This document shows positions 5,197 through 48,962 of a stretch of 64,000 bases of DNA, piece after piece. Positions within the stretch are counted from its first letter, which is position 1. Every line of letters begins with the position of its first letter. Under the pieces are notes generated by a model that was given only the letters and a program-made list of their open reading frames with translations, did not search any database and was not told the DNA's origin. Position numbers and translations under genes: made by a program. Origin of the DNA: a virus; the IMG/VR virus record IMGVR_UViG_3300045988_142085, positions 96,001 through 160,000 of that record. The stretch is one strand, 5' to 3'.

Positions 5197-6380
5197 TTTG
5201 TTTACTCCTTTATGATATAATAATATAATTAATTATGTTTGAATTTAAAATAATAAAATCGAGCCGCTATTACACATCTCTTTATTTAACTCTTAATATA
5301 TATTTAATTATAACTACCTATATAATAATAATATAATACTCTATACATTTATTATACTATGATTAATTTACTATTATACTAGTAATATTTATATAATTGT
5401 TTATGTTATATGTTATTATAATAATATATTAGCGTAACTGGTCGGCTTTAGCCGAACTGTTGCTGTCAATTATATTAAATAAGGTTTGAAGTATTGTAGC
5501 TAGTTTATTTTAAAAACAATACGAAAACAAATGAATTAGGTAAGTAGAGATATGTTTCAATATATTAATTAAAATATTAAAATTAACCAAAAACACTTGA
5601 AATAGAACGGTTGTAGAGTGTTTCTGCCCCTCTTTGTCTCAAAAAATAGAAAACACTCAAAAATATCAATAATAAGCAGGGTTTGAAGTATTATAGTAGA
5701 TTAAATGCTTAAAATATTAAAATGAGTAAAAAATATGCAATTAAGGTAGATGTGAGAGTGTTATATATATAGTCTAAAACTTAAAATAGCCTAATATTGC
5801 TTTAAAAACGGTGTGAGATAAGTGTTTCCTACCCTCCTCCCCCACCCAGCAAGCAATACTACACTTGCAGGATGTTGTCGTCGGGGCGCTCGTGAGGCGA
5901 CAGCGGGCTTTATTATTTTTTTTATTTATTATATATATAGTATATATAGCCTAAGTTATATAATAGTATAAGCTACGCAATAATTAAAGGCGGTGCCTCT
6001 AAGACTCTTGTTATTTAAAAGGCATTAATCTGTGTTATAGTATTATATAGACAGCCTTAATATTATATTATATATATGTTAAATAATAATATATCAGTCT
6101 ATATACGAGGCGCCAAGTCCTCTCTTAACACACGGGAATTGGCTCAATCAGGTGACGGTTATTTAAGAAATAATCTATACTTAATAATTATACAACAAAT
6201 GTATAATCCATTTAGGTTATCCTATTATATACTATAGATATAATAAATTAATACTAAGATTAAAAAAGGTTAGATAAAATCTACATTTTTAGCGACGATA
6301 TTTTTTGATAAAAAAATACCAAAAAATATCACGAATTTCTATTATACAAAAATAATGTATAAATAATTATTTTAATATTT

Positions 6381-6505
6381 TTAACCCGCTACACAACCAT
6401 AGATTGTAATATACCGGTGTAACAAGTTACACCGCTCCGCAATTTTTAATATAAAATAATATAACCAAGGCCCCCTGAAATAAATTCAGCAGGGTCTTTT
6501 CTTTA
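6381..6505 (+). ncRNA. candidate small-RNA unit 1: motif TTAACCCGC-N-TGTAATATA, perfect hairpin GGTGTAAC/GTTACACC, then intrinsic terminator
   Basis: conserved 9-mer plus -10-like TGTAATATA shared with units 2 and 3; downstream hairpin 6473-6494 followed by a T-run. Confidence 0.35.
6473..6505 (+). terminator. intrinsic terminator (CCCTGAA..TTCAGCAGGG plus TCTTTTCTTT)
   Basis: hairpin followed by T-rich tract on the plus strand. Confidence 0.45.
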
Positions 6506-6569
6506 TATTATTATATATATAATATAATAAACACTAACAATTAAAATAAAAAAATTATTTTTATTTTTT

Positions 6570-6682
6570 TTAACCCGCGGTGCTAACTTAACATGTAATA
6601 TACCGGTGAACGACAGTTCACCGCTTCCACTCACTTAAATATATAATAATCCTCAGAATAAAATCTGAGGATATTTTTTTTG
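6570..6682 (+). ncRNA. candidate small-RNA unit 2: same promoter-like motif, hairpin GGTGAAC/GTTCACC, terminator CCTCAGA-loop-TCTGAGG plus T8
   Basis: motif identity with unit 1; covarying hairpin; clean rho-independent terminator 6651-6682. Confidence 0.4.
6651..6682 (+). terminator. intrinsic terminator (7-bp GC-containing stem plus T8)
   Basis: perfect stem CCTCAGA/TCTGAGG, loop ATAAAA, then ATATTTTTTTT. Confidence 0.6.
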
Positions 6683-6689
6683 GAATTAA

Positions 6690-6786
6690 TTAACCCGCTT
6701 CGCTAATATACTACGTAATATACTAGTGGACGCAGTCCACTACTTCAGAACCTAAGCATCCTGACCTAACGGCCAGGATTTTTTCA
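6690..6786 (+). ncRNA. candidate small-RNA unit 3: same motif (CGTAATATA variant), hairpin AGTGGAC/GTCCACT, terminator ATCCTGacc..ggCCAGGAT plus T6
   Basis: motif identity; covarying hairpin; terminator 6758-6786. Confidence 0.35.
6758..6786 (+). terminator. intrinsic terminator
   Basis: stem ATCCTG.CC/GG.CAGGAT followed by TTTTTT. Confidence 0.5.
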
Positions 6787-7960
6787 TTATTAAGCATAAA
6801 CAAAGTTGGCCCATTTTAAAAATGCTCCAAACCCTTACTCACGTAATCTGCTGTGAAGATAAACAACTCGCAGAGGATCGTACACGAATAACCGTTTAAC
6901 GTATTCGGGCCTTAGCCCTCGATACTACTTTATATATAATATATATATAATTATTCTAATATTATTTAAAGATTTAAATAAGCGTCACTATTATTATCTA
7001 AATATAATAATTTATTTTAATATAATTAAAAAACCGTTCGCCTAAAATATTCGGTGTTCATTCTCTCTATCCATAACACCTAGTAAAAGAGGTAACAGTA
7101 TAACGCCGGAACCAGAGCAATAAAATTCCAGCTAACTGGTTAGAGCTTTCAAACTCTAACAACTTGGAATGATTAGTACTCGATAATAATTGTATCCTAA
7201 TAATTAATATTAATTATTATAAATTAATCTCGCACTAAGCAGAGCCTTCGTCACGAACTATAACACAGAAAATTGTAATTACGCTACGCTAATACAACCA
7301 GCCAACTTCGCTGCGCTATCTTTCTCTGGATCGGATCAAGACATTCTTTTATAATATATATAATTTAATAAAAGAATCAAAAGGGATTCGCCACCTAATA
7401 TAACCTTCGCCCCTAAATTAAATCCGGGGTCTCAGAACATATATTCCTTCGGAAATAGCCGGCGGCTCAAAATAATTGAATTATTTAAATCCAATTATAA
7501 TCACTGTTGCTCACCTAATTGAATAACTAGCAATAGTGTCCTATATAATATATATACTAATACTTAATTAATAATATACTTCATATATTATTATTAATAA
7601 CTAACATTACTTTTAAATAAAAAGTAATACAAAATACATATGGGGGGCGAAAAATATTCGAAATTTTATAACCTAAAGTTTCAGATTTTTCAGCCCGGAT
7701 TTTCGCTTTTATATATAGTACGACATAGTATACCGCTCACGGTCGTCCTCGCTAACGCTCGTTCCTTACCTACAGCTCAGTCGCAAGCTCCTTTCGCTTT
7801 CGGGATGCGTTTGCTATACGGCCCTCCGGGCCTCCATTATACTATACATATAGATAGCTTAAGGCAGGCGCTTTAATCGGTCGCTCCCGCTCCCTCTTCG
7901 CTTCTTTATCTAACCTATCTATATCCTTACGGATCGTAGCTAAAAGCTTAATACTAATAA

Positions 7961-8324
7961 CTTACTTCTCTTAATAAGAGAAGATAACAAGAGAACTTAA
8001 TATACTATATACATATATAATAAACGCTCGCTACCGCTCGCTTCTAATATAAATATAATATATATAATAATAAATACTTACTTTCTTAGGAAGAAAGATA
8101 ACAAAGAAGATATACGCTCGCTTCGCTCGCTCTTAATATAAATAATAAATACACACTTACTCTCTTAGAAAGAGAGTAACAGAGAACTCTAATAATAAAT
8201 AATAAACTGCTTACTTCTCTAAAGAGAAGATAACAAGAGACACATATACGGCTCGCTTATGCTCGCCTTGTTAAATAAATAAAATGAATATGCTTACTCT
8301 CTTAACAAGAGAGATAACAGAGAA
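7961..8324. repeat. array of 5 covarying hairpin repeats: CTTAC-[pyrimidine tract]-loop-[purine tract]-(G)ATAACA-[purine tract]
   Basis: copies at 7961-7994, 8077-8110, 8156-8186, 8210-8240, 8293-8324; flanks conserved, stems differ with compensatory changes (TTCTCTT/AAGAGAA, TTTCTT/AAGAAA, CTCTCTT/AAGAGAG ...), and the 3' purine tail covaries too. Confidence 0.7.
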
Positions 8325-8410
8325 TATTATAACGGCCGGCTCACGTGCGTTCGCACGGCCTACTATACAAAATAAGAGATCTACGCTCAGCTCGCATTCG
8401 CTCGCTTCGC
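8025..8410. repeat. CGCTCGCT-nn-CGCTCGC iteron-like motifs (4 copies) interleaved with the hairpin repeats
   Basis: copies at 8025-8043, 8115-8132, 8249-8267, 8384-8410; related CGCTC-rich tract at 7747-7765; GC-rich direct repeats in an AT-rich noncoding region. Confidence 0.55.
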
Positions 8411-8531
8411 TTATAGAGCGCTCGTGTGGCTTTATTAAGCAGTAACAACTTCACGCTATAAGTAATCATAGCCACCCAATTAAATATCATATACTGACGC
8501 ATATGATATTCAAAAAAAATAATTTTAGTAC

Positions 8532-8575
8532 ATACATATATATTGGATTAAAACCATACTCCAATATATATGTAT
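8532..8575. repeat. perfect 16-bp AT-rich inverted repeat (8532-8547 / 8560-8575) with a 12-nt spacer
   Basis: ATACATATATATTGGA ... TCCAATATATATGTAT, read directly. Confidence 0.7.
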
Positions 8576-8672
8576 ATATTAAATAAATTTTAAAAGAGCA
8601 AGCCGTCCTTTATATATACAGGACACCGCATCAAAAAAATATAGCTTTAGTCGGGAGCCATATTAATATTAT

Positions 8673-8745
8673 TTATTTAAATAAAAATAAGGTTTAGATA
8701 ACAGATGCGACCCACTCCCGTGTGCTTTTCCATTATCTAAACCTT
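8673..8745 (-). terminator. terminator of the rightward-encoded minus operon: 13-bp inverted repeat AAGGTTTAGATAA/TTATCTAAACCTT then a U-rich tract on the minus strand
   Basis: perfect 13-bp inverted repeat 8689-8701 / 8733-8745 just downstream of the stop of 8752..9234; the loop is long (31 nt), hence moderate confidence. Confidence 0.45.
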
Positions 8746-8751
8746 TAATAA

Positions 8752-9234
8752 CTAGCCTTCAGCTTGAGCTTCTTTAGCTTGGTTAGATACCATAACGATA
8801 TCATCGCTACCATCACCAGTAGAACCGAAAGATTTCTTAATAGAACGAATTTCATCGCTCTTAGTTAATTCGCCCCAGGATGCTTTTGCTTCGTCTACGA
8901 TGACACTAGTGCCACCAATTCCAAGCTCAGCAACCTTTTTAAGGCCACCAAAGAGACCTTTGGATACAACTTTAATACCGCCAATGCCAGCATCTTTAGT
9001 AATGCCAGCAACGATACCTAATTTCTTTCCGCCCCAGTTCACAATGCCACCAGTAGTAGCTTTGAATTTTGCCATTTTGTAGGCAGAAAGAATATCTTCT
9101 ACGACTGCATCGTCGCATTCTACTGTAAGAACTGTGCCATCTTGTGTGACACTTGCGTTGAATTCTTCAGTAGCTTTTTCATTGATATAATTAAGGATTT
9201 CTAAGTTTTCGTTTGTAATCTTAAATTGAGCCAT
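8752..9234 (-). CDS. Gly-rich hypothetical protein (160 aa)
   Basis: ORF track; strong ribosome-binding site; GC-richer codon usage than the flanks. Confidence 0.55.
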   Translation of the reverse strand: MAQFKITNENLEILNYINEKATEEFNASVTQDGTVLTVECDDAVVEDILSAYKMAKFKATTGGIVNWGGKKLGIVAGITKDAGIGGIKVVSKGLFGGLKKVAELGIGGTSVIVDEAKASWGELTKSDEIRSIKKSFGSTGDGSDDIVMVSNQAKEAQAEG

Positions 9235-9290
9235 GATGAGCCCTCCTCTTATTTAATAAAAAATAAGGGAGCCATGTGGCCCCCTTTAGA

Positions 9291-9980
9291 TTAAAATACA
9301 CCAGACACGTCTTCAACTTTCTTATTCGGGATTTCACGAACAAGATTAAATGTTTTGCTAGCCAAAGCATTAATTGCACGGCTAGAAGCACTTTCTGGAC
9401 GTTTAGCATACAAGTCACCATTGTGACGAGTAGCTACAGGGTAAGAGTAGTTACCCTTCATACCATTGGCGAATTTCACGCCATCTTCTGTAATACCATC
9501 TTTGAATACCAGCATTTGACCTTCTTCAAGTGCAACGCCTTCAGGCACTACTAGGTCAAAACCAGATAATTCAGATTGACGTGTGATTCGAAGATTAATG
9601 CCAGCTTCTTTGCTAGCTTCAAGAGCTTCTGCTAAACGAGTATAAGCAGTTGTATGCTCAGGAGTGTCATATTCGCTAGTAGCGAGTTCTGCACTTTCTT
9701 CAGGAGTATTGCCTTTAGCCAACAAGCCCATCAACTGATAAGTCTTGATAGCAACAGAATCAGGCAATACCATTTGTGCTGTCATATTGTCATATTCAGC
9801 ACGACGAGAAACAAAAAGATTTACTGCATCAGCAGTATGAAGAATTGCTACCGGCACAAACGCACCTTCGCGTTTCGCCAATTTAGCAACGTTTTCTTTG
9901 CCCCATGCTTGGAATGCACGAGCAAATCCGCCAAGTTTTGTACCAGCGATAACAGATGTAATGATAATGTTTTTAGCCAT
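9291..9980 (-). CDS. hypothetical protein (229 aa), compositionally GC-richer, possibly abundant virion or early protein
   Basis: ORF track; AAGGAGG ribosome-binding site; plus-strand ORFs overlapping it are spurious. Confidence 0.55.
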   Translation of the reverse strand: MAKNIIITSVIAGTKLGGFARAFQAWGKENVAKLAKREGAFVPVAILHTADAVNLFVSRRAEYDNMTAQMVLPDSVAIKTYQLMGLLAKGNTPEESAELATSEYDTPEHTTAYTRLAEALEASKEAGINLRITRQSELSGFDLVVPEGVALEEGQMLVFKDGITEDGVKFANGMKGNYSYPVATRHNGDLYAKRPESASSRAINALASKTFNLVREIPNKKVEDVSGVF

Positions 9981-41159: not shown

Positions 41160-43100
41160 AACTTTCTTAACAATCATCTTAGAATCAGATTCTTTTTTGC
41201 CAGATAAATAGACTGTTTCGCCATACTTAATATAAGGCAAATTATTTAAATAAATAGAACTGAATACGATCAAATCAATTTCGACGCCGCCACCAACATC
41301 GCCTTTACAAAATGCCATAAGATTGCCGGACTTATCTTTTCGTTCATCGACTTTGGTGATTCTAACTTTAACGTTTTCTACTTCTGTTTTATCTTCCATA
41401 GAAAACCATTCTGGTGTATATGTTACCGGGCAATTTAATGTGTCCATTTCAAAGCTCATAATAAGTTCCTTTCCATAATTATCATTATTTAAACGTTCAT
41501 CTTTATCTTTTCTTAAATCATAAAACTGATTCATTAATTTTAAACGATTACTTTCGATATTAGAGAAAGCACCCGACTTAATTAAAGATGAACCAACACG
41601 TTTATTAAACGCTTTTTTACCAATTTTATTCATAGCATCTTCTAAAGAAGTGTAAGGTCGATGTTCAATTATGGCAGGTATGGAAGATAGACCCACGCCC
41701 TTAATGGACCCAAGACCAAATAAGATAGTGTTTCCATTAGGAGTAAAATCGAGATTTGATACATTAATGTCCGGAACTTCAACGTCGATCCCTTCCTTTC
41801 TAACCAATGGAATATAACGAACTAAATCTTCTAAAGATTGCATCGATAAATATGCAGCAAAGAATTCTACTGGATGATACAATTTAAGCCAAGTAGTAAG
41901 CATACTGGTAAATGAGTAGGCTACAGCATGAGATTTGTTAAATAAATAATTTGAATATCCTTGTATTGTTTCAAAATAATCTTCCATTTCTTTCTCAGTA
42001 TAACCATTAGCAAGAGCACCTTTAATTTCAGGACCATATTTACCTTTAGGGTCATACCAAGGAGCTTTATCGTCTTGTTCCCAACCTTCTGGACCTTCAC
42101 AATTTTTCTTGCCATAAATATGACAACGTTTAAGCATAGGCATTTTATCTGCTTTTTTCTTGGCCAGAATTTTTCTAGAAAGTGAATCTGCTTGGTTATC
42201 ATCAAAGCCAGAAACTTGTTTAGAGATCATCATAATCTGCTCTTGATACGGGATTACAGAATATGTATTACTTAAAATATTATCGATACCGCGTAAAGGA
42301 GCAGTTAATTCCTCTTTACCTTGTTTACGCTTAGCATATTGATGGTGCATATTTGCACTTAATGGGCCCGGTCTCAAAAGTGCCGTGGTTGCCGCAATAT
42401 CGTCGAAGCAAGTTGGCTTCATCTCTTTTAAATAATCTTTAAACATATCAGATTCTAATTGGAACACGCAATCTGATTTAGCTTGTGCCAATAATTTATA
42501 TAATTTTTTATCTTCGATATCGAAGCTATCATATAACCATTGAACATCTTTATTTAAATGTCTTAATGTTGTTTCTATTATGGATAATGTTTTAAGACCG
42601 AGGATGTCGAGTTTTGCTGTACCTAGTTCTTCACATTCAGTACCTGTAAATAACGTAATTGTTACGCCGTCAGCATCAGTACGTGTCGGAAAATAATCAT
42701 CGACACGACAAGGCATTGCTAGAATACCAGAAGCATGAACACCGAAGTTACGTTTAAGACCTTCGAATGCACGAGCCAATCTAAATAATTCTTTATTGTC
42801 GACTTCTAATTTCTGCCATTTAGTATATAAAGATTTTTCTGTTTCGTTGCCATCTTTTAATGCATCATAATGTTTAAACTTTGGTTGAGGAGGTACGACA
42901 TCTTTAAAGTCGTCAATAATTTTAGATAATGCATTCATTTTATCGAATGGAATTTTAAGTGCGCGACCAATATCTTTTAGGCCAGATTTAACGCCCATTT
43001 GAGAATATGTACCAATATGCGCTACGTTACTTTCGCCGTATAAATCTTTAATATGTTCAATAACTTTGTCTCGACCAAAGTAGCTAAAATCTGAATCTAT
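41148..43100 (-). CDS. dnaE: DNA polymerase III alpha (DnaE-like) exon 2; true 5' end at 43100, upstream of the ORF-track Met
   Basis: Aligns to the E. coli DnaE palm and fingers (FQLES, RPGP, NKSHA motifs). The in-frame stretch upstream of the ORF-track ATG reads IDSDFSYFGRDKVIEHIKDLYG, matching E. coli [23 protein letters not shown]. A stop codon lies just beyond 43103. Confidence 0.75.
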   Translation of the reverse strand: MDSDFSYFGRDKVIEHIKDLYGESNVAHIGTYSQMGVKSGLKDIGRALKIPFDKMNALSKIIDDFKDVVPPQPKFKHYDALKDGNETEKSLYTKWQKLEVDNKELFRLARAFEGLKRNFGVHASGILAMPCRVDDYFPTRTDADGVTITLFTGTECEELGTAKLDILGLKTLSIIETTLRHLNKDVQWLYDSFDIEDKKLYKLLAQAKSDCVFQLESDMFKDYLKEMKPTCFDDIAATTALLRPGPLSANMHHQYAKRKQGKEELTAPLRGIDNILSNTYSVIPYQEQIMMISKQVSGFDDNQADSLSRKILAKKKADKMPMLKRCHIYGKKNCEGPEGWEQDDKAPWYDPKGKYGPEIKGALANGYTEKEMEDYFETIQGYSNYLFNKSHAVAYSFTSMLTTWLKLYHPVEFFAAYLSMQSLEDLVRYIPLVRKEGIDVEVPDINVSNLDFTPNGNTILFGLGSIKGVGLSSIPAIIEHRPYTSLEDAMNKIGKKAFNKRVGSSLIKSGAFSNIESNRLKLMNQFYDLRKDKDERLNNDNYGKELIMSFEMDTLNCPVTYTPEWFSMEDKTEVENVKVRITKVDERKDKSGNLMAFCKGDVGGGVEIDLIVFSSIYLNNLPYIKYGETVYLSGKKESDSKMIVKKVSLS

Positions 43101-44294
43101 CTTTTACACCCTAGCTTTCGCTATATTTATTAAGGAATAGACCATATCTTCACCATATTTTTATTTTTAAAATAAAAACTTAGGTTGCTCCATTTCGGGC
43201 TTATCACCCTACGTCCCTTTGGACTGGCCGTTGAACGTTCCCCTATTCGAGGCTTCGCTGCTGATTTTCCAATCTTGTCTTTTTTTAGCATATCACACTT
43301 TTGCTTATTTCATCAATATGTTGTAGCAAGACAAGCTCTAAGGATGTTCCAGCAATTTAGAGCTCTTTAAACTTTAGATTTCTCTAAAGCACGACTATTG
43401 TTTAAATTGCATAAATCTAAATATCTTTGATATTTTCTATTCAAATATATCGTTGCATTTTTATATAATAGATCTAAAATTTTTTGTGTTTTTAAGTTTC
43501 CACCAAATTCTAAAGACATAACTTCTTGATAATCTTTTCTTTTATAATATTTATTAGCAGAAAAGCCAAGTTTTTCTTCTATATAATTATTAACAAAATC
43601 AAGAAATTTTTTAGTTGAAACTAATTTAAAAGCATAACTGTTACTTAATTCTGTGTTGGTGTGAGCAATAGAACCATTCCCATCAAAATATCCTCGTATA
43701 AAATCTGATACATAATTTTCTAATAAAGATATGTCTGGAGGAATTAAAATATTTGTTTTGTGTTCTACTAAGTTATATTTTAATAAATCATTAAACATAA
43801 TTTCAGAATAATATATTATTCTACTATAGCTATTTTTAGAATAAGAGTTTTTAGTTGCTTCATATGTTTTAATGGGATGATTACTCTCTAAACTTTTATT
43901 TAATTTTTCTAAATGAGTATAATCACAAGTAGACAATGTAAGACCTACTTTGTATGAATTATTATTTTTAGAAATATATCCATCAGCCATTAAAAAACCT
44001 AACCAATATGCTTTTTCTTCTGTGTCTATTTTATTGAAAAATTTTTCATTAAAATGATAGCGTGAATTAGCTTCTCTATGAGATCTAGGCGTTAAATTTT
44101 TCTTAATAAAGTATGAAACTTTTCCAGTACTAATACCTAATTCTTTTGCTATATATGGTGATCCATGTTTTTTATTATATAAATCTACAATTTTATTTTG
44201 AATTTCTTTTGATAATTTTGACATATATGTTACCTCATATTTATATTGATTTATAAATATTATAACATATATAATTATCTTATGCAATCATATA
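43101..44294 (-). mobile_element. group I intron (about 1194 nt) in dnaE carrying a LAGLIDADG homing endonuclease gene
   Basis: Exon 1 ends in U (GAU, Asp of LPD) and the intron ends in G, the classic group I boundaries. Joining the exons restores PD-IDSDF in frame. The 3' 266 nt is GC-richer and hairpin-rich (ribozyme-core-like). The nuclease has its own ribosome-binding site. Confidence 0.6.
43367..44224 (-). CDS. LAGLIDADG homing endonuclease (double-motif, about 286 aa) with N-terminal HTH
   Basis: motifs WLGFLMADGYIS and IRGYFDGNGSI; GAGGT ribosome-binding site before the Met at 44224; lies between the dnaE exons. Confidence 0.7.
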   Translation of the reverse strand: MSKLSKEIQNKIVDLYNKKHGSPYIAKELGISTGKVSYFIKKNLTPRSHREANSRYHFNEKFFNKIDTEEKAYWLGFLMADGYISKNNNSYKVGLTLSTCDYTHLEKLNKSLESNHPIKTYEATKNSYSKNSYSRIIYYSEIMFNDLLKYNLVEHKTNILIPPDISLLENYVSDFIRGYFDGNGSIAHTNTELSNSYAFKLVSTKKFLDFVNNYIEEKLGFSANKYYKRKDYQEVMSLEFGGNLKTQKILDLLYKNATIYLNRKYQRYLDLCNLNNSRALEKSKV

Positions 44295-45686
44295 ATCTGG
44301 CAAGCCTGTTCTGTCGATAGTCAAAAAACGACCGAACAGTAAATCATATTTAATAGGATCGATATTTTTAGTGATGCCAATACACCATAATACTAAACTA
44401 CCTGCAGCGCTCCCGCGTCCAGGACCAGTCATTACACCATTATTATCGGCCCAGTTAATATATTCACGAACGATAAGCATATAATCAGCGAAATCTTTAT
44501 AGTTAATAATGTTAAGTTCATACGCTAAACGTTGTTCATATCGTCTAATATCGTTAGCGATATAATCATATCTTTTTGCTAACTCATATAAACCTTTGTA
44601 AGCTAGTTCACGCAATTTACGTTTAGTATTTTTAACGCCAGGAAGTTTAGGCATTAATGGTACATCACTGCCTAATTTATATTCGCCGACTTTATTTGCG
44701 ATTTCTTGAGTATTATGCATTGCTTCTAAATATAAAGCATATTTTTCACGAGCAACACTTACTTCAGTTTCAGACGTATTAATTAAATATTTAAATCCGT
44801 CTTGCATTTCTTCTTCGTTTTTAAGCCAGAAGTTATGATCGTATTTCATACGGTTAGGATTATAAATATCGGTGCCAGTGCCGACACATACTAATACATC
44901 ATGATCTTTATTATCCTCTTTGAGGACATAATGTACATCGCTTGTCGCAACGAGTTTAATATTATGCTTCGTCGACATTGTTAAATAAAAATTATTTACT
45001 TTGACTTGGTCGTCGAATGCATTAGGTTGAACTTCGAGATAGAAGTCGTCACCGAAAATATCTTTATATTCTAAGATAAGTTCTTCGGCTTTTTCTAAAT
45101 CGTCTTTACGAACACGACTTGCTACCATATTCGCAACACATGCTGTCGTACAAATAACGCCTTCGCTATATTTACGAAGCATCGGCATATCGAACAAAAA
45201 GCGCCCGTTGTATGTACATACTTTAGCAGATTCACTTTGTAATTTAATTAAATTATTTAACCCTGTTTGATTTTTAGCTAATAAGATTAAATGATATTGT
45301 CTTGTGTCGTACATATGTTTTTCTGCACGAGCCTTAATATCTTTAATGCCTTTAACGCCTTTTTTGCCGGACGCTAAATCTTCAGCTTCTTTTTCTGTTA
45401 AGTCTCCGGCTTCTTTCGCCTTCAAAGCCGCATCGGCCCAGCGTTCTTCAACAGGTTTAGATAATGAAAGAGTGTCCCATGTTTGATATCCTTCATAACC
45501 TAAGATAGGCTTAACACCTTGTTTTTTACATTCTTGTAAAAATTCATAAATACCGCCCATATGATTATGGTCTGTGATGGCTAAACTTTCCATACCGAGT
45601 TCTTTAGCACGGCTAACTAACTTCGGTATATGACAATAGCCATCTAAAAAGCTATATGATGTATGTACATGTAAATGCGTAAACAT
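44295..45686 (-). CDS. dnaE: DNA polymerase III alpha (DnaE-like) exon 1: PHP domain and N-terminal palm up to GPGRGSAAGSLV...GLPD
   Basis: MFTHLHVHTSYSFLDG PHP motif; GPGRGSAAGSLVLWCIGIT..DP..LLFGRFL matches the DnaE signature; the ORF stops 4 codons into the intron (YMIA*). Confidence 0.75.
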
Positions 45687-45748
45687 TTTATTATTCCTCC
45701 TTATAAAAAATATAATTGTTTATCAACAAATATATAATATTATGTATA

Positions 45749-46987
45749 CTATTCTAACCAATAAATTTTATTAAATTTCCAAATTAATTTACATTTTTGT
45801 GCGTTTACTTTTTTACAGTGTTTAGTTTTTGATTGAAAATTCAAAACTAATTGTTCTGGGTATAAAGCTGTAACATAGCCTGTGTGAATCTCTCCATTTT
45901 TATACGTATAAGAAACTAAATCTCTATGCTTAATCCCTAGTACATTATTAGTTTTTGCTTTTGATTTTCTCCTCATTGGTTTAATAGTCCATTCTTTTAT
46001 ATTGCAAGAATCTGGAATGTCATTTGTAATACATATAGCATCATTACTATGAGATTTTTCTATATTCCATTCAATTCTTTTATTCGCAGTTGCGCCGCCA
46101 TTAGTCAAATGCAATAATCCTAATTCAGATATTTTATTTCGTAAATAATTTTTACCTTGCATAACATGCATTGCATAATCGAATCGTTTAGGCTTAGAAT
46201 TAATTATTTTAAAATATTTATCTTCAAAATCTTTTTCTTTACCTTTTGTTTTGTCATGACATTTGAAACAAAGAGTAATTAAATTTCCAATAGTATCTGC
46301 TCCATGATATTTTCTTGCTCTTATGTGATGTACTTCTAATTTGCAATTAGATTTTCCACATTCTTGACATTTATAGTTATCACGAATAATAGTTGCTTTT
46401 CTAAGATTTTCATCTAAACGATTAGATTTTTGATATTGCCATTTATAAGGTTTATAATCGTCTGTCATTGCACGAATATCAATACAAACATCTTCAAGAT
46501 AATATTCTTTAATATTTATCCATTTATTTAGTTGATATAATACTCTTAAAATAGCATCTTTCTTTTGTTTAATAGTTGGTGTTAATCTACCGACTTTTTT
46601 GGAAGATGAGCGATTATTAAACCTCATTGGTCTATGTCTTTTATGGTAACGATGATATTGTCTATATCTACGTCTAGTATCCATCAAATGTTTCACATCT
46701 TGACGTTGTTCAATAATCCCTTTAAATACTACTTTATTTTTAGTAGAACATTTCTGAACAATAGCTATACCAACATGTATAGAACCATCGTCTATACCAC
46801 AAATTATATAACTTTTATCATTTTCATTAAATTCAACTTTTTTATTTAGTTGAATTACCATTGGGTATTTAGATTTTAATTTTGCTCTGCCTTTTCTAAT
46901 TAGATACCAGCCTTTATTCACTTTTGTTGGCGCTAATGGTTTATTATCTTTATCAATTACAAAGCAATATTCAATTTTATTTTCCAT
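45749..46987 (-). CDS. iscB: IscB RNA-guided nuclease (PLMP, RuvC-I, Arg-rich bridge helix, RuvC-II, HNH, RuvC-III, TID), 412 aa from Met [12 protein letters not shown]
   Basis: Motifs seen: KPLAP with [12 protein letters not shown] (PLMP domain), [16 protein letters not shown] (RuvC-I) and [16 protein letters not shown] (bridge helix). Also YLEDV (RuvC-II), CQECG..HHI..N..LCFKCH (HNH) and HSNDAI (RuvC-III). GGAAGG ribosome-binding site 9 nt upstream of this Met. Confidence 0.75.
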
Positions 46988-47280
46988 TTCTGGAAACCTT
47001 CCTTTCGGAGTATTTTTCGTCTTGCCAATGTCGTGGATGGTGCATGTGTTTCTCTGTTGTCTATACAGGACGTTAGTATAGTTTCTTGATTGGCACTCAC
47101 AGAGCTTCAGACTGACGAGCACATCTAAAGGTGTGTCTTTAACCTTTTCCATAACGTAGTTCATATCTGCAGCATATCTTTCGATAGCAGCAATCACTAA
47201 GGCTAGAAACCTATTATCAAGCAAATACAAATAAGAAATATAATATATATTCGCCCACTTTTTCGTATTTTTATTTATAA
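46988..47280 (-). ncRNA. putative omega-RNA scaffold (plus guide) of the IscB element; coincides with the ORF-track N-terminal extension
   Basis: about 230 nt of markedly GC-richer, stem-forming sequence immediately upstream of and abutting the iscB start, the canonical omega-RNA position; exact ends unknown. Confidence 0.4.
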
Positions 47281-47297
47281 AATAAATTACTTAATAA

Positions 47298-48962
47298 TTA
47301 GTCCTTAATTATACTTTTTACATTTAAAGTATATAGCCTAGGCTTCATGAAGTTTTTCTCGATATCGCCACACATCGTAATTCTATCGCCAACTTTAATT
47401 CCGAGATCTCCTAATCTCCATGCCCAGATACTTAATTTTGTTTTTCCGTCGAATACTGTATACAATATATTATCAGGATTATTTCCGCTCGGTTTAATAT
47501 CGAGAACACTTAAATCTTTTATTCTAACTTGTGGTTTCGTAAAAGTTAAATTGTCGAACGAGAATAAATTAAATGATTTATAAGATTCAACTGTTAAATC
47601 AGACAATTTAAGATCGATATATTCAGGTTCTTTAATCTCGATAGTAACTTCTTCAGGTGGCACATAGGATGCGATTTTTGCGCTCAGAGCGAGTTTAAAC
47701 TCGTTTTGCATATCTTTATATATCGTAAAGCCACAAGCGGCAGCATGGCCACCATATGAAGCTACAGAAGGTTCATTAAACAACAACCAATCTAATGGAT
47801 ACGTATTACTTCGAGCAGAACCATGAACTACTTCACTATCCGACAATCCAACAAAACTAGGTTTGCCGCTATATTCTTGTAAGCGTCCTGCAAGTATACC
47901 GATAATACCGACCGGTATTTCATCGTTAACGACAAGAGCTATTTCGCTATCATCGTCTTGCTTATCGTATTGTTTAATAATCCTTTCGCTAAAATCTTTA
48001 GTCAATTCTTTGCGTCGAGTATTATATTCTTCGACAGTATTACATGTTTCGATCGGTTCTTCACTTACATCGAATAATTTAATAGAAGCACCGATATCGA
48101 ATAATCGAGAACATGCATTTAACCGAGGAGCAATTTGCCAAGATACAAGATCAGCCGTAATAGCTTCCTTAGTTAGCATATCCAAGAATACTCGTAATGT
48201 GTTCGGTATTTGTTTTTTCTGAATCTGATTAAAACCTTTACGAACGATAGCTTGATTAATGTAACTGCTTAACGGCATTACGTCGGCAATAGTACCGATA
48301 GCCGTTAAATAAAGTAATTTATCGCTTTCATAATGATTATAGCCTAATTCATTTTCTATCGCTCTGCAGAAATAATAAGCGACACCAGCGCCGCATATTG
48401 CTTTTGCCCAGTGATCGCTTTCGGTTATATGTTGGTCAACGATAATTGTATCTGGTAAAATTTCTTGCGGTAAATGATGGTCAGTAATAAGAACCGGAAT
48501 ATTGTATTTCTTACAAAGTTCGACTTCTTCGACTTTAGTTATACCGTTATCGACAGTCATAATAAGCGGTTTAATTCGTCGCTCATATTTTTTATTAACG
48601 TCTTCGATAAACTTAACACTTAAACCATATCCATCGCTTCGTTCTGGAAAATATACTTCGCTATGAGTCGGAACAATTTTATTTAAAAACTTTTTCATAA
48701 TCGTTCCGCTTGTCATTCCATCGACATCATAATCGGCATATACATAAATATCTCGACCTTCTTTAAAGCATTGCACTAAAAACTTAGCTGCTTTATCGAT
48801 ATTTACAATCGGTTCTGTTTCATCGATGTTGAGTATCTTATCTTGGTCGTATAGAATATTATATGCTACGTCTAATGGAATTTGTTTTAGGGCGAGTATT
48901 TGCGCCACTAAATCGTTAACTTTTAAAGTTAACCTGTACTTATCTTTATCTATCATAAGCAA
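47298..48962 (-). CDS. recJ: RecJ-like single-stranded-DNA exonuclease (DHH/DHHA1 family)
   Basis: YADYDVDGMTSG (DHH motif I), VLITDHHLP (DHH motif III), C-terminal DHHA1-like region. Confidence 0.65.
   Translation of the reverse strand: MLMIDKDKYRLTLKVNDLVAQILALKQIPLDVAYNILYDQDKILNIDETEPIVNIDKAAKFLVQCFKEGRDIYVYADYDVDGMTSGTIMKKFLNKIVPTHSEVYFPERSDGYGLSVKFIEDVNKKYERRIKPLIMTVDNGITKVEEVELCKKYNIPVLITDHHLPQEILPDTIIVDQHITESDHWAKAICGAGVAYYFCRAIENELGYNHYESDKLLYLTAIGTIADVMPLSSYINQAIVRKGFNQIQKKQIPNTLRVFLDMLTKEAITADLVSWQIAPRLNACSRLFDIGASIKLFDVSEEPIETCNTVEEYNTRRKELTKDFSERIIKQYDKQDDDSEIALVVNDEIPVGIIGILAGRLQEYSGKPSFVGLSDSEVVHGSARSNTYPLDWLLFNEPSVASYGGHAAACGFTIYKDMQNEFKLALSAKIASYVPPEEVTIEIKEPEYIDLKLSDLTVESYKSFNLFSFDNLTFTKPQVRIKDLSVLDIKPSGNNPDNILYTVFDGKTKLSIWAWRLGDLGIKVGDRITMCGDIEKNFMKPRLYTLNVKSIIKD

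Follow-up and report, generated by a model that had tools for sequence, protein, structure and literature searches.

The 64,000-nucleotide stretch of DNA analysed here (positions 96,001 to 160,000 of IMG/VR record IMGVR_UViG_3300045988_142085, hereafter the window) contains a complete 1,604-bp IscB/omegaRNA (OMEGA) element at 45702..47305 on the minus strand, within the genome of a large gut phage of ~236 kb. The element comprises an omegaRNA scaffold, the gene of the RNA-guided nuclease IscB and a short right end, and is inserted between recJ and dnaE. It is most probably an intact, non-autonomous phage element of the ISC/IS605 type which would home by RNA-guided cutting of element-free genomes. 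An earlier note, made from the letters of this DNA, had recognised the locus; its span of 45749..47297 proved too short at both ends.

Empty sites and limits of the element

The features which define the insertion, with the target-adjacent motif abbreviated as TAM, are the following.

45702..47305, minus strand: whole mobile element (omegaRNA scaffold, iscB and right end), 1,604 bp, with sharp conservation limits and empty sites in 16 sister phages
47298..48962, minus strand: recJ-like gene (DHH/DHHA1, Pfam); the element supplies its final codon GAC (D) and the stop codon (47298-47300)
44280..45686, minus strand: N-terminal part of dnaE (PHP and DNA_pol3_alpha, Pfam), directly downstream of the element
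45696..45701, minus strand: Shine-Dalgarno sequence AGGAGG of dnaE, also the TAM-compatible motif after the protospacer in empty sites
45702..45748, minus strand: right end, found family-wide (nhmmer E=7.6e-19)
45750-45729, minus strand: conserved 8-bp hairpin in the right end, overlapping the iscB stop codon

Insertion of the element between recJ and dnaE is proven, because 16 sister phages carry the empty site. These IMG/VR phages encode a RecJ 93-96% identical to that of the window, and in all 16 recJ directly abuts dnaE as ...AAAGTATAWTYAAGGAGGAATAG(TAA)AATGTTTACG. The empty junction may also be written ...AAGGAGGAATAG(TAA)AATG, and around the insertion point it reads ...ATAATCA followed by AGGAGGAATAG. 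The empty-site sequence had been predicted from the element junctions before the sister loci were retrieved. Together with the Pfam assignments of both flanks, these sites bear out the earlier placement of an IscB element between the two genes. The recJ product ends in ..KEE* in the empty allele, where it overlaps the dnaE ribosome-binding site, and in ..KD* in the window, where the D codon and the stop codon come from the element.

The same presence/absence polymorphism at one position in close relatives is found in five more occupied/empty pairs among the related loci, and all follow one rule. An empty site reads flank, then (A/G)GGAG...; an occupied site reads flank, then AGGAC-TAATT...element..., then (A/G)GGAG.... 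The element start AGGACTAATTATTAAG (window 47298-47305; also L009, L012, L032, L051, L058 and L062, the L numbers denoting compared loci) gives stop codons to upstream open reading frames (ORFs) which formerly ran into the ribosome-binding site of the downstream gene. No second phage with the element at the recJ-dnaE junction was found in IMG/VR. Five matches there to degenerate patterns of the occupied junction or target were dismissed as chance, as they lacked an omegaRNA.

A scan of IMG/VR for related IscBs returned 67 loci at 76-92% protein identity, plus a few at ~60%. The recJ-dnaE placement is seen in none of these loci, and a search of the phage collection for near-identical DNA gave no match. 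In the aligned upstream regions, conservation begins ~319 nt before the ATG at (A/G)GGAC followed by TAATTRTTAAG, and falls from >90% to background just 5' of AGGAC, where at least 25 unrelated left flanks adjoin the element. On the other side it extends ~47 nt past the iscB stop and ends just ahead of an unrelated gene with its AAGGAG-type Shine-Dalgarno sequence and start codon. The limits are sharp across >60 copies with at least 26 unrelated flanks, and the element opens with AGGACTAATT, as do the published scaffolds of the ortholog HfmIscB-2 and of QtwtIscB1.

The suspicion that the right end is truncated or domesticated does not hold. Of the 62 nt before dnaE, the first 47 are the normal right end, seen in the >60 copies; the ribosome-binding site of dnaE and a spacer follow, the start codon lying 9 nt after AGGAGG. 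As to the suggested comparison with IS200/IS605-type hairpins, the 8-bp hairpin of the right end covaries (AATGTGTA/TACACATT exchanging with AATATATA/TATATATT); its wobble counts, 22 G.T against 12 A.C, leave the strand unassigned. The left end is rich in helices, which are accounted for by the omegaRNA. A single omegaRNA and a single right end are present in the 64-kb window, with one copy per related locus or contig, and a family nhmmer search of the window returned no extra or orphan omegaRNA copies.

The IscB protein

45749..46987, minus strand: iscB coding sequence, 412 aa and stop, starting at an internal Met at 46987
46988..47230, minus strand: apparent 81-codon N-terminal extension, a non-coding chance open frame over the omegaRNA

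The iscB gene is contained in a 493-codon ORF at 45749..47230 (minus strand), the product of which matches the Pfam families RRXRR (8.3e-43, residues 90-268) and HNH (3.1e-10, residues 288-327). Counted from the internal Met, the motif order is PLAP 17, GIDDG 64, RFNNR 122, YLEDV 163, CQEC 207, EVHH 218, CFKC 240 and SHSNDA 312, and all motifs of the IscB domain order listed in the earlier note are present. The architecture is that of IscB, with a PLMP region at the N-terminus, a RuvC fold in three segments, an Arg-rich bridge helix following RuvC-I, the HNH domain between RuvC-II and RuvC-III, and no REC lobe. The predicted RuvC residues D66, E165, H313 and D316 and the predicted HNH residues H220/H221 and N235 align with the catalytic positions of OgeuIscB. 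The profile searches that had been proposed confirm the IscB family; phmmer matches PDB 9k2z ‘HfmIscB’ with E=1.8e-235, and also TbaIscB, OgeuIscB (E ~1e-22) and IsrB.

Compared with 41 distinct relatives, the ratio of nonsynonymous to synonymous substitution rates (dN/dS) is 0.06-0.18 with a median of 0.11, and the iscB ORF is uninterrupted in 63 of 69 relatives. Due to this low dN/dS and the intact ORFs, iscB is read as a gene under purifying selection which encodes a predicted active nuclease.

The N-terminal extension is RNA and not protein, as had been suspected. In-frame stops occur within the 81 codons before the ATG in 39 of 40 distinct upstream sequences, the window copy alone being open, and gene callers on the source contig start iscB at the internal Met. 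The match to the 9k2z chain begins ~three residues from the internal-Met position, after ~125 unrelated residues, and the segment overlaps the omegaRNA.

Structure of the omegaRNA

46976..47305, minus strand: omegaRNA scaffold, ~330 nt, overlapping the first four iscB codons; 86.4% identical to the HfmIscB-2 scaffold
47213..47298, minus strand: 5' three-helix domain, supported by covariation, sitting where helix P1 of the Rfam model HEARO is
47298-47289 with 47222-47213, minus strand: outer stem of the 5' domain
47287-47283 with 47277-47273, minus strand: short hairpin of the 5' domain
47270-47258 with 47235-47223, minus strand: long hairpin of the 5' domain
47201..47210, minus strand: 5' strand of the pseudoknot (GTTT..GCC), pairing with 47019-47026
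47019..47026, minus strand: 3' strand of the pseudoknot, GGCAAGAC, partner of 47201..47210

The presence of an omegaRNA upstream of iscB is upheld by the 86% identity to a published scaffold and by covariation. The G+C content upstream of iscB is 0.36-0.42, compared with ~0.25-0.30 nearby. The earlier note had assigned a G+C-rich, structured RNA to 46988-47230; its character stands and its extent does not, since the 5' end reaches 47305 and overlaps the recJ stop. The scaffold fills the interval from the left boundary to the start codon, with the ATG within the last hairpin, and a scaffold search with the family alignment (nhmmer) finds it once in the window with E=3.5e-98.

HEARO (RF02033), an RNA family later recognised as the IscB omegaRNA (PMC13565253, PMC10055086), is the only meaningful Rfam match in the region upstream of iscB. 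In the covariance-model check which had been suggested, the alignment (47010..47218, minus strand; 31.3 bits, E=3.8e-4) spans all 211 model positions with helix P1 deleted, and stays below the gathering score of 83; at that threshold a whole-window scan reports no HEARO. The enlarged 5' domain replacing HEARO P1 probably explains much of the low score.

The structure was assessed in an alignment of 41 upstream regions, 40 distinct relatives being cited for covariation. The RNAalifold core shows compensatory changes in 43 of 61 pairs. The 5' helices were not recovered by RNAalifold, and the outer stem, the two hairpins and the pseudoknot were added by hand and then tested. The resulting structure contains 83 pairs in 17 helices with 95.7% of cells paired, against 32-47% in slid controls with partners moved by 1-3 columns. 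Double-sided changes are found in 55 of the 83 pairs; shuffled controls average 20, and none of 500 attains 55. Helices 1-3 of the 5' domain are 89-92% paired with exchanges between GC and AU, and their many U.G pairs point to selection on an RNA of the iscB sense.

The upstream region, the folding of which had also been recommended earlier, has a covarying pseudoknot at the position of that of the HEARO model. Its helices 6 and 7 are 99-100% paired, and in L041 and L050 a change of GCC to GGG is compensated ~190 nt away by a change of GGC to CCC.

A -10-like motif (consensus GTGTATAAT) is located in the loop of the long 5' hairpin (~47243-47252) and in the right-end hairpin (45737-45745). These motifs might drive iscB or the downstream gene, although the window copies are degenerate and a sigma-70 scan of the window gave no promoter at them. 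In an alternative account, the promoter-like GTGTATAAT in the loop would start an RNA ~25 nt before GGTTTCNAGCC, with a fixed internal guide and a constant target. The motif is kept in the loop, a similar one is found in the right end, and there is conservation from the boundary to the HEARO-like core, where a variable guide region would be expected. Nevertheless, the first 88 nt fold into three helices, in which compensatory and U.G changes occur on both sides of the putative start. As the helices span both sides, the full 5' region is selected as one RNA. Moreover, in the scaffold published for the active HfmIscB-2, AGGAC comes first and the guide is placed 5' of it. On the basis of the covariation, the published scaffold and the promoter scan, the fixed guide was rejected as highly improbable.

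Putative guide, TAM and proposed distinction of self from non-self

47306..47325, minus strand: putative guide-encoding flank AAATGTAAAAAGTATAATTA, the last recJ codons, directly 5' of the scaffold

HfmIscB-2 originates from an infant faecal metagenome contig, and its TAM and omegaRNA scaffold are given in Supplementary Table 1 of Kannan et al. 2025 (PMC13180657). According to that source, the scaffold extends between AGGACTAATT... and ...CCAGAGATGGAAAATGAA, the nuclease carrying it cuts DNA in vitro where a 3' RNRRRD TAM adjoins the target, and the assay design places the guide 5' of AGGAC. The published 5' end is the left boundary mapped here, which implies that the guide in the phage is flanking recJ sequence. 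From this boundary and the IscB architecture described in PMC10055086, the guide would correspond to the last 16-20 nt of recJ. In keeping with such an arrangement, the segment directly 5' of the conserved scaffold is variable and encoded outside the element, as its unrelated flanks indicate. The flank AAATGTAAAAAGTATAATTA has no other match in the window.

The six bases which follow the protospacer in the empty sites are AGGAGG, AGGAGA, GGGAGG or GGGAGA, and all fit RNRRRD. Directly after the element, an RNRRRD-compatible purine hexamer, A(G/A)G(G/A)(A/G)N, is found in 28 of 28 distinct left-flank contexts. The occupied allele reads AGGACT at the TAM positions, with a C at the purine-only position 5, and the AC of AGGAC is nearly invariant in the element family. 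The difference between AGGAGG and AGGACT would provide a simple rule of self and non-self.

Insertion rule and proposed read-in transcription

At at least 26 sites the element is co-oriented with the downstream gene and lies immediately 5' of its Shine-Dalgarno sequence. A co-oriented upstream ORF ends at the junction in 23 of the 26, and a co-oriented downstream ORF starts 5-12 nt after the motif in nearly all of them. Because the TAM coincides with the Shine-Dalgarno sequence, insertions fall between the genes of operons, in the short spacers. According to Meers et al. (PMC10055086), the IscB guide RNA depends on transcription that reads in from an upstream gene of the same orientation. The recJ-scaffold arrangement agrees with this requirement, and no minus-strand promoter or terminator was found between recJ and the scaffold.

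Proposed mechanism and its alternatives

Under the proposed mechanism, transcription from recJ into the element would produce an omegaRNA carrying the last 16-20 nt of recJ as its 5' guide. The ribonucleoprotein (RNP) would recognise the guide target only when AGGAGG follows it, i.e. in a co-infecting sister phage with the element-free allele or in a copy from which the element has been lost. The allele of the carrier itself, with AGGACT and thus a C at the purine-only TAM position, would be spared. The ensuing double-strand break between two essential replication genes would be repaired from the element-bearing genome, whereby the element is copied in (homing), or the rival genome would be lost. 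Movement to new sites would presumably depend on a Y1 TnpA acting in trans, or on rare illegitimate recombination. The role in homing or phage competition that the earlier note put forward would fit the evidence.

Homing into empty sites by cut and repair is the best-supported route of spread between phages, and corresponds to the ‘non-restorative homing’ proposed for OMEGA-type elements (PMC13565253). A recent change of site is indicated by elements 98-99% identical to each other at two unrelated sites (L031 versus L032/L039; element at ~5683-7285 in each; 98.8% cited). The sister-phage lineage carries the element at four alternative sites, four sister contigs having an IscB element elsewhere.

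A number of observations weigh against this reading. Cleavage, the RNA ends and homing of this copy are predictions from sequence, and the HEARO score lies far below the gathering threshold (31.3 versus 83 bits). Self-avoidance depends on a single TAM position which is taken from a consensus. The guide, which was to be sought in related phages, has no perfect match in any of the 16 empty sites; they differ from it at 1-4 positions, all in the 7 TAM-adjacent nt (ATAATTA at 47306-47312 of the window versus ATAATCA, ATATTCA, ATGTTTA, ATATTAA and ATATTGA at ~5640-5665 in L070-L085). The present-day targets of the window guide may accordingly be poor, and a perfect target with guide match and TAM was not found in IMG/VR. 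Furthermore, no Y1 TnpA was found among 20 window ORFs of 120-229 aa or the Pfam-annotated gene calls within 8 kb on either side. There is one copy per phage contig, unlike typical multi-copy insertion sequences (IS), and some junctions are fuzzy or have short diverged duplications (L007, L008, L052), whereas a clean TnpA reaction predicts otherwise.

The TAM-adjacent differences could be escape alleles, or could have arisen by drift in the last recJ codons. The former would be expected if the element were primarily an inter-phage weapon (superinfection exclusion or competitor killing) and not a self-spreading element, retained by the phage because its RNP destroys related genomes with an intact recJ-dnaE junction. 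Two essential replication genes border the target, the guide would match the genomes of sister phages and not that of the carrier, and the empty sites differ from it mainly at TAM-proximal bases; competitor killing by phage homing endonucleases is discussed in a review (PMC13565253). Such a primary function is improbable, however, as identical molecular steps give homing, and the many unrelated sites in different phages speak of selfish spread and not of the defence of one locus. The TAM-proximal variation also coincides with the last, probably unconstrained, codons of recJ.

The closest IMG/VR copies of the window element are only ~90% identical to it. This distance and the missing perfect target in IMG/VR would be compatible with an inactive relic persisting between recJ and dnaE. 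Such an origin is scarcely credible in view of the intact catalytic residues, the dN/dS of ~0.1, the compensated pairing of the omegaRNA and the integrity of both ends.

A further account retains RNA-guided homing and dispenses with TnpA. The element would be free-standing and spread only by IscB breaks and recombination between co-infecting phages, new sites arising by microhomology-mediated repair at AGGA(G)-type ribosome-binding sequences and not by HUH transposition. No TnpA was found in the window, each phage contig has one copy, and every insertion has an AGGA core to its left and to its right. The final 1-6 nt ahead of the right motif are often a repeat of the left-flank end, and L007, L008 and L052 have longer diverged duplications or a truncated right end. 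On the other hand, the conserved right end with its covarying hairpin resembles IS200/IS605 ends, and AGGAG (TAM-like) and AGGAC (element-internal) mirror the logic of TAM and transposon-encoded motif (TEM) in IS605 elements (PMC10055086). The missing tnpA says little, given that ~98.5% of iscB genes are without a nearby tnpA (PMC10055086), and the search for TnpA covered 64 kb of a ~236-kb phage genome and no host genome. Complete independence from TnpA is hence considered possible but rather unlikely.

The motif is constant and the empty sites are exact, yet a repeat of 1-6 nt of the left flank is frequent at the right junction, and the breakpoints are thus not exact to the nucleotide. A true target-site duplication was rejected as a general rule, as the length of the repeat ranges between 4 and 9 nt and several sites have none beyond AGGA. 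In L007 (5660-7330) the usual right end is absent and a 14-nt diverged copy of the left flank is present. L008 (4400-6080), compared with the ‘empty’ L009 (140-175), contains the element and 31 nt re-creating a ribosome-binding site, an ATG and five codons, and L052 and L053, occupied at the same site, differ just before the TAM. The present junctions fit either route to new sites, trans-acting TnpA or recombination.

Comparison with known systems

The nearest characterised system is HfmIscB-2. The window protein is 81.6% identical to it over 397 aa and the scaffold 86.4% across the corresponding 330 nt. Both scaffolds begin with AGGACTAATT and share the end that overlaps the start codon, and the RNRRRD of HfmIscB-2 fits the AGGAGG of the empty sites. 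The window element is a different copy with a different insertion site and guide, and the 9k2z construct has EVAH where the window IscB has EVHH. Phage context, the ribosome-binding-site rule and empty sites are not described in the available parts of PMC13180657 or of the 9k2z entry. QtwtIscB1, from Ruminococcus sp. AF18 contig QTWT01000019.1 (Altae-Tran & Kannan 2021, from the list in PMC13180657), has the same N-terminus (MENRIEYCFVVDKNN...) and a scaffold start AGGACTAATTGTTAAGCGG identical to that of L013/L022-type copies. It differs in coming from an isolate assembly and not a phage contig, and its TAM entry in that table is ‘-’.

The IS605-family IscB of Geobacillus stearothermophilus (Meers et al., PMC10055086) shares the derivation of the scaffold from the transposon end, the guide from 5' flanking DNA and read-in transcription. 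Further common features are a TAM past the opposite end, an excised or empty site as the target and the usual lack of tnpA. The Geobacillus elements are multi-copy chromosomal IS with an AT-rich TAM (TTCAT) and a demonstrated TnpA partner, whereas the window element occurs once per phage genome with a purine-rich TAM coinciding with the Shine-Dalgarno sequence, TnpA not being found in the searched window. OgeuIscB (PDB 7UTN, 7XHT) has the same domain order, aligned catalytic residues and an omegaRNA pseudoknot at the equivalent place; similarity is limited to two local stretches (E ~1e-22), and OgeuIscB has ~496 aa compared with 412 aa here. The omegaRNA differs from the HEARO model in its three-helix 5' domain, which in Rfam is the single P1 hairpin.

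The free-standing homing endonucleases of T4-like phages (SegF, Mob and others; intronless homing, PMC13565253) are analogous in that a nuclease gene lies between conserved essential genes, is present or absent in close relatives and has as its expected target the element-free allele of a co-infecting phage. Their specificity lies in protein-DNA contacts, whereas here it would lie in an RNA guide and TAM, with self and non-self set by the insertion itself.

Lytic myophages of Staphylococcus in the Herelleviridae (e.g. vB_SsapH-Golestan101-M, CIFT_MFB_MRSA; PMC13346280) encode 51-59% identical IscBs. A HEARO-type RNA precedes the IscB gene there, and a ribosome-binding site and co-oriented gene come after it. 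They represent another phage family and host, and the loci are annotated only as ‘HNH endonuclease’ and ‘HEARO’. In vB_SsapH-Golestan101-M (L001), two ‘transposase’ genes of 121 aa (1569-1934) and 369 aa (8661-9770) are located <5 kb from the IscB homolog. The Silviavirus paper also lists RAGATH-18, a TnpB-type guide RNA, and such phages may carry several OMEGA-type elements.

IscB relatives at 53-64% identity are found in Bacillaceae and Clostridiaceae assemblies. In these (L089, L090, L092, L093, L067), a AAGGAGGTGA motif is followed by long CCTGGTTA...TAACCAGG inverted repeats within ~110 nt of the iscB stop, which resemble classical IS605-type end hairpins and are absent from the close family. 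IscBs 82-90% identical to that of the window, with omegaRNA, also occur on metagenome-assembled genome (MAG) contigs assigned to different bacterial genera (L086, USNF01000001.1 ‘Gemella’; L091, ‘Veillonella’; L087; L088). The ‘Gemella’ contig, 208 kb long, probably represents a phage genome that was binned with bacteria; the large MAG contigs of the other close relatives are likewise probably phage, and host assignment from MAG labels is therefore unsafe.

Phage context of the window

42999-44279, minus strand: intron region of dnaE, with the intron core at 43119-43414 and a LAGLIDADG ORF at 43367-44287

The window is phage DNA, with genes for tail and virion proteins and with 66 of 68 ORFs on a single strand; no tRNAs were found in it. 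The neighbouring intron and homing endonuclease which the earlier note described are confirmed, dnaE being split by a group I intron (Rfam Intron_gpI, 59.4 bits with a gathering score of 50) with a LAGLIDADG ORF; the whole-window gathering scan had missed it. Besides the window, L074, L077 and L081 have the intron, and 10 other sister phages lack it. In L075 there are ~300 additional nt at the intron position, and L078 and L080 contain a different insert of ~1.4 kb further into dnaE. At 6792-6962 (minus strand) the Rfam OTKONC RNA is matched with 170 bits (gathering score 141), within a 3.5-kb stretch (~5200-8750) almost without ORFs.

Biological significance

The novelty of the window element is modest, as it adds one more copy to an IscB/omegaRNA family which had been characterised before, and the class, the RNA and the TAM of an ortholog are known. 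It adds nothing to the genome-editing toolbox, and its value lies in natural history. The occupied and empty alleles at multiple sites in closely related large gut phages show the insertion rule of an OMEGA element, namely 5' of ribosome-binding sites, co-oriented and inside operons. The allele set, with one lineage and several alternative sites, also shows how a single TAM position can suffice to tell self from non-self. The proposed ‘non-restorative homing’ of OMEGA elements from one co-infecting phage to another becomes directly testable, and many phage ‘HNH endonucleases’ are RNA-guided nucleases.

A bolder view, put forward with considerable doubt, is that in these gut phages the element is now a transposase-independent, RNA-guided gene drive whose TAM has converged on the Shine-Dalgarno sequence. 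It would slot harmlessly between co-transcribed genes, borrow transcription for its guide, return a ribosome-binding site to the downstream gene and spread by cutting the element-free genomes of co-infecting phages. If this were true, the clustered TAM-adjacent differences in all 16 empty recJ-dnaE sites would be resistance alleles left behind by the drive.

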